Below are positions 6,001 through 9,000 of a DNA stretch of 26,967 nucleotides, one piece after another; positions within the stretch are counted from its first letter, which is position 1, and each line of letters begins with the position of its first letter. A program made the position numbers. The stretch spans positions 1-26,967 of IMG/VR virus record IMGVR_UViG_2541047926_000013; one strand, written 5' to 3'. The DNA comes from a virus. Lineage: Duplodnaviria; Heunggongvirae; Uroviricota; Caudoviricetes.

Positions 6001-9000
6001 TCGACAGATTCCATCAGGGAGCGTTTGCCGCTGAAGTCATTATCTTCAAAATCAGCGGTCTGGTTTGCTTCAATCGTGATTTTACGGACAGCCGCAGCCG
6101 CTTTTGTTGCCTGAATAGCGTCACCATTAGCATCAAAGCCTACAAGGTAGTCGGCCCAGTCTTCAATCCATTCTGCCAGTGACTTCTGGGAGTTACGCTC
6201 GCCGTTAACAGACAACAGAGCAGAGAACGGTGCTGTCTTTTTCAGTTTGAGAGTGGCGGTGTTATCTGCGTGACCTGGTTCATCAATAGTACCCAGGTTA
6301 AGCACACTGACGGCACGCATATTATCAGCATCGATAAAGCAGCGGGTGCCTTCATCTGCAAGATCTTTAGAATAACGGGTAAAATCATCGATGCTGGCAG
6401 TGGAAAGCGCGCCACGGAAACGGAAGCGATTTAAATTAAATTTTTCCAGATCATGAATGCGGAAATTCTCAGGCAATGCCACAGCATCGGCACCAATCTT
6501 ACTGATAATTTCATTAACACCCTGAGCAGAAATAAGAGCATGGATTTGATTAATTGCGGTTGCGTCTAAGTTCTGAGACATAATAAGTCCTCACTATATA
6601 AAGATATTCAGTGATGAGATAAATAATCAGTTAATTAAGAACGATATTAATGACCTGCTGCGCGGAGTTTTCCGTCAGGTTCACCGGCAAGAGTCAGTAA
6701 TTGTCCCTGGTCTTCCTGCAGAATAGTCAGGCGACCACCGCGATTGACATACATCGGCGTTTCGGTGGTGTCTTCTTCAGAAATTTTCCCGCGGTTAGTC
6801 GGGCGAACATATGAGAGTTTGTGTTTGATTTTCACACGGTTCTCATCAAACGGTTCGATTTCCAGGTTGAGCGAGACCTTACCTTTGGTTTTCGTGTTCA
6901 TCACACCGGAAGCGACTTCACTGAGAACAGCGCCGATTTTGGTTTCAAATACGCCGCCGTCCAGCTCCCCGATAAATGCCTGCACATCAGTACTGCGTTC
7001 GCTAGCCATTTTGCTGCTCCTCATCATATCGACCCTGCAAGGTCGGTTAGTTTCTCCACAAAACAGAGAAGAACACCTGCGGTGGTAGCCGCCCGGATGG
7101 ATTGGGTTATGAGCCCGTCGTCCGGTGATGCTCTTCTCTGTTTTGTAAAAAGAGCGGTACCAGCCGGAAGCAAGTGTACAAACTGGTACCGCGAGGACTA
7201 CACACAGCATAAAGTTGTGGTGCCGGGTGCCTCCCGGTGCCTGGCGAAGGTTGCACACCAGGCGGGTGGGTATCCACAGAAGGTCGACTGTCAGCCTCAA
7301 CCTTAACCCGCGTGCGCTGAGCCGCATTCACCACAACGCTAAGGATTCTCTCTGGTTGAAAATACTTAGCTGTTATGTGCCTGTCTTTTCACCACTTCAG
7401 GCTCGGTGGTATCTTGGTGTTTTCATATAGCCAAGAAGGAAATAGTTATGACCAAAGAAGAAAAAATTCTTTATTTATTCCAACTATCGGTTAAGACTCA
7501 CACTGCATATCAGACTGCTGCCATGACATCAGATAAAAATTACAGTACGTCAGAAAACCCGATAGACGACATAAGCAAGCTTTACGATAAGTTCGAAGCA
7601 CTACTCGATAAAAAGTTTGCTGAGGCTGGGCTTGAGTGATTGTTGAATAATCGACAAAACCCAACTTAAATTTTCGTCAGTGGGCTCGATGCCATGTGCG
7701 GTGAGCTCACTTTTCAAAACTCCAAGCAATTCAGAGCTGATTTTCAATATATCTGCTTGATTTCTAACTATTCCCACTTTTTCCTCCCTTGGTCTACGCG
7801 CGGTCATGTTTTACGCCCAAACGACTTCACAGTTATTGTTTAAAATCTGGACTTTCATTTTGTTCTTTAACCTCCAGATACGGGCGTTTAATGGCCCCGC
7901 CGAACAGCTCTTTTCCGCAATAGCTGCAATGTCTTTCGCGCATCAGCCTGCGCATTCAGCACAACTCTAAAAACAAATGTAGGATATCCAACATGTGAGT
8001 GTCAAGAGTTTATATTGGTTATCCTACATAAAAAGATAGGCTCATAAAAAAACCGGGGATACCCCGGTTTTGCGATAGTGAGGAAGATGTGTCAAAAATC
8101 CATTATTACTTGTTTGACAAGACCAACTATTCTGCAGTTCTCACCGCATTCAATAGTTTTATAGTTAGGATTTAGTGGGACGAGATACCTGTTCGGCCAG
8201 TCCTCAACAAATTTTTTGAGTGTCGCTTCTTGCCCACCATTGATATGGGCAACAACGATTTTTCCGTTAATACACTCTGTATCAATAATATCTGGCTCTA
8301 CGATAACGATAGAACCTTCTGGTATCGATGGTGAGCCGAGGGGATTGGTCATTGAATCACCACGGACCCGTAGTGCAAATGCCATTTCTGATACAAGGGC
8401 GGTAGTATAAACCCACTCTTCAGCATCTTCTTTCCTGACACCAGGCTCCGTCATTGTCCATGAACCCGCCTGAACCCACGAGATGAGGGGGACTTTTTTA
8501 ACTGCGAATATTTCAGGTTTTAGATTTATCTTTGGTTCAGGCGAGCCTTTTCCGCTAACAAGCCACAGAGGATCGCATTTAAGTGCGTTGGCTAGGGCTT
8601 GAAGGTTGGCTCCATTTGGTTGGTAGTCGTCCTTTTCCCATCCAGTAACCGTGACACGGTTCACACCAGTCAAATCAGCCAGTGCTTGTTGTGTCAGGTT
8701 CAGTTCTTTTCGCCTTTGGCGAATACGATCACTCATGTTCATCATGTAGGCAATCCTACCACATGCCCATGTAGGATTCTTGACATTGGTATGTTGGATA
8801 TCCTACATTTATGCTTAACGTAATTTAACGGGAGACAGAAATGCGGAAATCCGACGTGATTAATTATTTCGGCGGAGTTTGTAAAACCGCCGAAGCCCTA
8901 GGTATTAAGCATCCTTCTGTTTCAGAGTGGCCTGAGATTATTCCTGAAGGCCGAGCGTACCAGTTAGAAAAAATTACTAACGGGAAACTGAAAGTTGACG

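Follow-up and report, generated by a model that had tools for sequence, protein, structure and literature searches.

The window analysed here (26,967 bp; positions 1 to 26,967 of the Caudoviricetes record IMGVR_UViG_2541047926_000013) carries a CI-type repressor gene, cI, with short palindromes on both sides, and raises the question of whether these palindromes are the operators of a prophage immunity switch and, if so, of what kind. A first-pass annotation had proposed five 18-bp dyad sites flanking the repressor gene. Here, we have located all five, four in a mismatch scan and the fifth in a full scan of the window, and from sequence comparison we are highly confident that they are the left (OL) and right (OR) operators of a lambdoid (lambda/P22-type) prophage immunity switch. 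This reading is supported by a sharp footprint of conservation, by recognition helices that are conserved together with the sites, and by a layout resembling that of P22. That the gene between the sites encodes a CI-type repressor is borne out by its HTH_3 and Peptidase_S24 domains and by its assignment to the phage repressor family phrog_4; cI occupies 8092-8745 on the minus strand and encodes 217 residues from its first ATG.

Sites were scored by their mismatches to the consensus of the first-pass annotation over the whole window. Two of them match it perfectly, OL1 (7977-7994, ATGTAGGATATCCAACAT) and OR1 (8791-8808, ATGTTGGATATCCTACAT), and a sequence check bears out the claim that the latter is the exact reverse complement of the former. 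OL2 (8012-8029, ATATTGGTTATCCTACAT) has two mismatches, OR3 (8744-8761, ATGTAGGCAATCCTACCA; TGGTAGGATTGCCTACAT on the cI-sense strand) has three, and OR2 (8769-8786, ATGTAGGATTCTTGACAT) has four. The centre-to-centre distances are 35 bp for OL1-OL2, 25 bp for OR3-OR2, 22 bp for OR2-OR1 and 814 bp for OL1-OR1. When up to three mismatches are allowed, exactly four sites are found in the window (OL1, OR1, OL2 and OR3), all of them inside 7977-8808, against 0.09 expected by chance, and none of 100 shuffles equalled this count. At up to four mismatches, five of the six sites in the window cluster in 832 bp of 27 kb. The search for further sites that the first-pass annotation had called for thus yields a single addition, at 17316-17333 inside an open reading frame (ORF). 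Since about one such site is expected by chance, we take it to be unrelated and reject the idea of further regulated genes. The proposed GGATATCC core is present in the two perfect sites, but the other three read GGTTATCC, GGCAATCC and GGATTCTT. Because the GATATC core is confined to the two perfect sites, its explanation as a restriction site was also rejected.

An independent promoter scan gave exactly two strong matches, both directed outward. The leftward promoter PL (8006..7976, minus strand) has a -35 TTGACA at 8006..8001, an 18-nt spacer and a -10 TACATT at 7981..7976; the rightward promoter PR (8780-8809, plus strand) has a -35 TTGACA at 8780-8785, an 18-nt spacer and a -10 TACATT at 8804-8809. 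Each matches at 10 of 12 positions. The scan therefore recovers, on either side of cI, the TTGACA hexamer with an operator between -35 and -10 that had been predicted, and narrows the predicted 17-18 bp spacing to 18 nt in both cases. OL1 and OR1 are identically placed relative to PL and PR: in each case the spacer is taken up by the perfect operator, the last five bases of which make up most of the -10. As OL1 and OR1 fill the 18-nt spacer and the -10 in this way, a bound repressor would be expected to exclude RNA polymerase.

The identity of OL1 and OR1 is part of a 40-nt inverted repeat (7968-8007 and 8778-8817, 83% complementary) that includes the promoter hexamers. This repeat invites another explanation, in which the palindromes are not protein-binding sites but the by-product of a duplicated promoter cassette, with the remaining sites as decayed copies. 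That OL1 and OR1 lie inside the repeat together with both hexamers, and that the -10 TACATT is built from the operator end, are in keeping with this explanation. However, OL2 and OR3 lie outside any promoter-like match and are conserved although their neighbouring bases vary, and each site has a dyad symmetry of its own, in which the arms are conserved and the centre is variable.

The conservation was examined in 80 loci, obtained from a scan of viral contigs, in which CI is 75-100% identical to that of the window; these gave 39 distinct OR haplotypes and 26 distinct OL haplotypes for alignment. Operator blocks and -35 hexamers are conserved across the OR and OL haplotypes, the PL -35 being invariant and OL1 almost so in its 26 haplotypes. 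Free variation is seen in the 4-nt gap between OR1 and OR2, in the 7-8-nt gap between OR2 and OR3, and in the 5-6 nt between the PL -35 and OL1. The arms of OL2 (ATGT.GG ... CC.ACA) are preserved, but its central 4 bp differ between haplotypes (ATAA, ATAT, TTAT, CTTT, TTTT, AAAG and ATTT), in agreement with the non-contacted centres of the P22 and 434 operators (PMC3317979, PMC5175364). The 35-bp OL1-OL2 spacing is constant in all relatives, and the good half-site of OR2 (ATGTAGGAT) is conserved across the family together with its spacing. The other half of OR2 is taken by the PR -35 (TCTTGACAT), and this would be why the site has a single good half. In loci L065-L076 (CI 83-84% identical) the OR2-OR3 gap is 8 nt rather than 7, so that the spacing is 26 bp rather than 25 and evidently tolerates a change of 1 bp.

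The sites are conserved together with the protein helices expected to read them. The region GVNRVTVTGWE of CI, with its recognition helix NRVTVTGW, is unchanged in every relative that has these operators, including phage mEp390, whose CI is only 60% identical. The Cro helix GIKHPSVSEW is likewise invariant in the relatives with 75-100% identical CI, despite divergence elsewhere in the proteins. Where the helices change, as they do in P22, the operators change as well. A duplicated promoter cassette would hardly follow, from relative to relative, the recognition helices of both CI and Cro in this manner, and we consider that explanation extremely improbable.

Several observations nevertheless weigh against the operator reading or against parts of it. 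The operator strings were not found in the searched literature, and, judged by titles and abstracts, no paper mentioning mEp390 has the operators of that phage as its subject. Between about 0.6 and 1.1 sites of OR2 quality (four mismatches) are expected per window, and the score of OR2 is by itself not significant; OR2 is recognised instead by its position and by its conservation in relatives. The consensus promoter scan gave no PRM, the promoter from which the repressor gene would be transcribed in the prophage, and the weak candidate described below is not conserved in relatives whose CI is 83% and 76% identical. At 35 bp, OL1 and OL2 are 3.3 helical turns apart, so that dimers bound there would not be ideally placed on one face of the helix. 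The assumption of cooperativity is carried over from lambda and P22, whereas in phage 933W, which also lacks OL3, binding is non-cooperative. Lastly, at position 8014 in OL2 the window alone has A, the other 58 of 59 loci with identical CI having G; the change turns ATGT into ATAT at a conserved outer position of the half-site, and the window's copy of OL2 may be weakened by it.

The last observation also bears on the idea that the operators are real but lie in a decaying cryptic prophage in which they no longer function. In favour of this idea are the unique G-to-A change at half-site position 3 (one of the 59 loci) and the fact that many lambdoid prophages of E. coli are defective. On the other hand, the other four operators of the window agree with the family consensus, the cI, cro, CII-like, O-like, lysis and morphogenesis-sized ORFs are intact, and isolated phages, for example vB_EcoM-720R4, have a CI protein of 100% identity. 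We therefore regard decay as improbable and favour a functional set of operators.

How such a set of operators could work is suggested by the repressor itself. The N-terminal domain of CI aligns with P22 C2 (PDB: 2r1j, 1adr, 3jxb; E about 5e-14), while its C-terminal two-thirds aligns with lambda CI (PDB: 3bdn, E = 7e-25), including the autocleavage residues, which are found in VQAG (Ala93-Gly94), GDSM (Ser131) and the Lys of ATLKKF (Lys177). We infer that CI dimers, with a helix-turn-helix N-terminal domain like that of C2 and an S24 C-terminal domain like that of lambda CI, would bind the 18-bp dyads through the half-site ATGT(A/T)GGAT, and that Cro dimers would occupy the same sites. Repressor or Cro at OL1 and OR1 would occlude PL and PR. 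OR2 would probably be filled cooperatively from OR1, which is 22 bp away, and CI at OR2 could then activate a weak leftward PRM, while OR3, lying over the start of cI, would switch PRM off at high repressor concentration. By analogy with known switches, both cooperativity and looping between OL and OR may be expected. The intact autocleavage apparatus argues for SOS inducibility, in which RecA-stimulated autocleavage at Ala93-Gly94 would inactivate the repressor and the same sites would then pass to Cro produced from PR.

The same operators could, however, follow the logic of 933W, with non-cooperative binding, occupancy set by intrinsic affinities alone and no OL-OR loop controlling PRM; OR2 might then be weak or non-functional. 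The number of left operators bears on this possibility. No third OL site is present at up to five mismatches between OL2 and the cI stop codon in the full scan, and OL3 was rejected. That stretch holds instead the intrinsic terminator of the cI transcript (8046-8071, minus strand), a CCGGGG-UAU-CCCCGG stem followed by a U run, with a fold of -17 kcal/mol (z = -3.6) that none of 200 shuffles equalled. The terminator, which was missed by a simple terminator scan and sits where P22 has its third OL site, would insulate PL from PRM read-through. With two OL sites and a terminator in place of OL3, the window resembles 933W, which likewise has no OL3 and whose repressor binds non-cooperatively (PMC5977221, PMC3317979). 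The single consensus half-site of OR2, and the presence of the module in phages converting for Shiga toxin (Stx) 2c, point the same way. Against this, the C-terminal domain of CI aligns well with the domain that mediates cooperativity in lambda CI, the 22- and 25-bp OR spacings match those of P22 and lambda, and the good half-site and the spacing of OR2 are conserved in the family. Moreover, CI is only ~35% identical to the VT2-Sakai-type repressors of Stx phages among the matches listed, through which its relation to 933W CI, not itself among those matches, was judged. We consider a switch of the 933W kind unlikely and favour cooperative filling of OR2.

The positions of the right operators were compared with those of lambda. 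If PR starts near 8816-8817, as expected, the centres of OR1, OR2 and OR3 fall at about -17, -40 and -64. In lambda, the corresponding centres are at -17, -41 and -64. Measured from this predicted start, the geometry of OR is essentially that of lambda. By symmetry, and by the lambda-like geometry, PRM would be expected to start near 8734-8736. A weak candidate is present on the minus strand at 8769..8741, with a -35 TGGGCA (8769..8764), 17 nt and a -10 CATGAT (8746..8741). It matches at 8 of 12 positions, which is below the threshold of the promoter scan, and it would place the centre of OR2 at -41.5, as in lambda. Its putative start, A8736, is the A of the third ATG of cI, so that a leaderless mRNA encoding MSDRIR... 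could be made; this start is a weak candidate.

The first-pass annotation had noticed that the first right-side site overlaps the start codon of the repressor gene, and had taken this as a hint of a short-leader autoregulated transcript. The overlap is confirmed, as OR3 shares 2 nt with the first ATG (8745..8743), and the hint is plausible. Leaderless mRNAs have precedents among repressor genes, in lambda cI and in PaaR2 of CP-933P (PMC8630535), which makes the suggestion a reasonable one. OR3 also contains an AGGA 8 nt upstream of the first ATG (8745), and transcripts coming from further upstream could use that ATG. We rejected, by contrast, a PRM upstream of OR3 with this AGGA as its ribosome-binding site, because its hexamers match at only ~3 of 6 positions each and because repressor at OR1 and OR2 would stop its own synthesis. 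Nor can a start at the internal Met be a rule for all relatives, since the distance from the centre of OR3 to the internal-Met ATG is unequal: 16.5 bp in the window, 13.5 bp in mEp390 and 24.5 bp in P22.

While the operators are conserved, the bases between them are hypervariable. Among the 59 loci with identical CI protein, mean nucleotide diversity is 0.144 in the 17 gap columns (8787-8790, 8762-8768 and 7995-8000) and 0.0046 at 217 third-codon positions of cI, a difference of ~30 times; it is 0.0069 in 90 operator columns and 0.012 in the other non-coding columns. Variation is seen in 11 of the 17 gap columns (Fisher's test against third-codon positions, p = 3e-9), with three alleles in five of them, and five different gap haplotypes occur among 12 loci that are otherwise identical over 1.1 kb. 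Position 8810 is likewise hypervariable. All four gametes are seen even between adjacent gap columns, which requires recurrent mutation and led us to reject recombination as the cause. Methylation-linked mutation was rejected because neither Dcm nor Dam sites fall in the gaps. As a control we used 54 loci sharing an identical C2 of the phage 21/P22 type; their 12 OR gap columns are all invariant although third-codon diversity is similar (0.0073), so hypervariable gaps are not a general property of this architecture.

A frequent variant on the cI-sense strand, G8768T, found in 11 of the 59 loci, would change the -35 of the candidate PRM to TTGGCA and suggests that promoter strength may have been tuned repeatedly. 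We tentatively propose, as a possibility well short of an even chance, that the gaps are either a hotspot of recurrent mutation or a place where selection has repeatedly adjusted the strengths of PR, PL and PRM and, with them, the rate of spontaneous induction. If this is true, the promoters would be re-tuned while the repressor and the operator sites are left untouched. As the set-point of the switch governs toxin release in Stx phages, the gap bases may be of interest there as natural variants of promoter strength.

The neighbouring genes complete a canonical lambdoid immunity region in both content and order: cI, cro, CII-like and O-like. Divergent from cI, cro (8841-9038, plus strand) encodes a 65-residue protein of the P22_Cro family with the helix-turn-helix motif GIKHPSVSEW. 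It is followed by a gene for a CII-like transcriptional activator of 194 residues (9066-9650, plus strand; phrog_101, E = 3e-62, with a weak Phage_CP76 match) and, downstream of that, by a gene for an O-like replication initiator (9995-10936). At 10304-10367, inside the O-like gene, a 15-bp unit (TCTGACCCGTCAAAA) is repeated 4.3 times in tandem; we take this array to resemble origin iterons, as in lambda ori.

Two further features were observed on the PL side. The stretch 7145-7367 (minus strand) in the early region matches the Rfam family STnc100 of small RNAs (49.1 bits, gathering score 47, E = 6e-8) and overlaps an implausible N-terminal extension of the ORF at 6647-7327; at this position, the sole annotation in phage Lys8385Vzw is a 363-bp coding sequence. 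Just downstream of PL, at 7900-7966, is a 66-bp stretch with 98.5% identity to segments of phages that are otherwise unrelated, including the plp region of P1 and RCS47, mEp460, IME207 and several Stx2a phages. It overlaps an ORF of 40 residues (7833-7955, minus strand) that contains a CxxC motif and matches no PHROG.

The 1-kb module is not peculiar to this window. At 99% identity or more, it occurs in six phage records, among them three Stx2c-converting phages, Lys8385Vzw, vB_EcoM-720R4 and SKA5, and in 140 of 5426 complete E. coli genomes (about 2.6%), which argues for a maintained module. The present analysis provides a precise map of operators and promoters for an immunity type on which the literature search gave no operator data. 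Prophages whose CI has the helix NRVTVTGW are predicted by this map to be homoimmune with the window phage.

It remains to compare the locus with known systems. In layout the locus resembles P22, whose C2 is 44-46% identical to CI overall and homologous in the N-terminal domain; the repressor of phage 21 is nearly the same as that of P22. In both systems, Cro belongs to the P22_Cro family and the operators are 18-bp dyads whose arms are conserved and whose central 4 bp vary. The OR spacings are 23 and 25 bp in P22 and 22 and 25 bp here, and in both OL1 lies inside the PL spacer, 35 bp from OL2 with the PL -35 between them. Both also have OR3 at the repressor start codon, where in P22 it abuts the c2 ATG. 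In a P22-type locus (L083), for instance, OR1, OR2 and OR3 are at 717-734, 740-757 and 765-782 and the c2 ATG is at 783, while OL1 (1536-1553) lies inside the PL spacer and OL2 (1501-1518) is 35 bp away. The number of sites differs: P22 has six natural operators, OR1-3 and OL1-3, with the consensus ATTTAAGATATCTTAAAT (PMC5175364), whereas the window has five and no OL3.

Specificity differs as well. The half-site is ATTTAAG in P22 and ATGT(A/T)GG in the window, so that positions 3 and 6 are changed, and this matches five changes in seven residues of the CI helix (GVSNVAISQWE in P22, GVNRVTVTGWE here); the Cro helices are GISDAAVSQW and GIKHPSVSEW. As the recognition helices differ in both CI and Cro, the window phage and P22 should be heteroimmune, and since neither the P22 half-site nor the helix SNVAISQ is found here, we did not assign the locus to P22 or 21 immunity. 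Together with P22 C2, the window repressor offers a natural specificity-swap pair (P22 TTAAG to GTAGG) for studies of helix-turn-helix recognition. The placement of PR on OR is also distinct: in P22 the -35 is at the edge of OR2 and OR2 lies in the spacer, while in the window the spacer is occupied by OR1 and the -35 lies inside OR2.

In this last respect the window is like lambda, where OR1 likewise covers the PR spacer and -10 and OR2 the -35. Gene order (cI, cro, cII-like, O-like) and the C-terminal domain of CI, with its Ala-Gly, Ser and Lys autocleavage residues, are lambda-like too. Its sites differ from those of lambda in being 18 bp rather than 17 bp long, unrelated in sequence and paired with a P22-type DNA-binding domain. 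It also has two OL sites instead of three and no rexAB genes, and as a result OL and OR are just 814 bp apart. With 933W, the window shares three OR and two OL sites without OL3 (PMC5977221) and a module carried by Stx-converting (Stx2c) phages, whereas the operator sequence is another one and the repressor is as distant as described above. A further parallel is mEp390, which has the same CI recognition helix, an identical 18-mer as OR3 at the start codon, the same five-site layout, the 35-bp OL spacing and a PL composed of TTGACA, 18 nt and TACATT; it differs in that some of its half-sites read GTAAGAT rather than GTAGGAT and in its Cro helix, GISHASVSGW. Taken together, the locus is an immunity region of the P22 architectural type with a different specificity, five operators and a lambda-like placement of PR on OR, so that what is new is the DNA specificity within a well-known kind of switch and not the kind of regulatory system.

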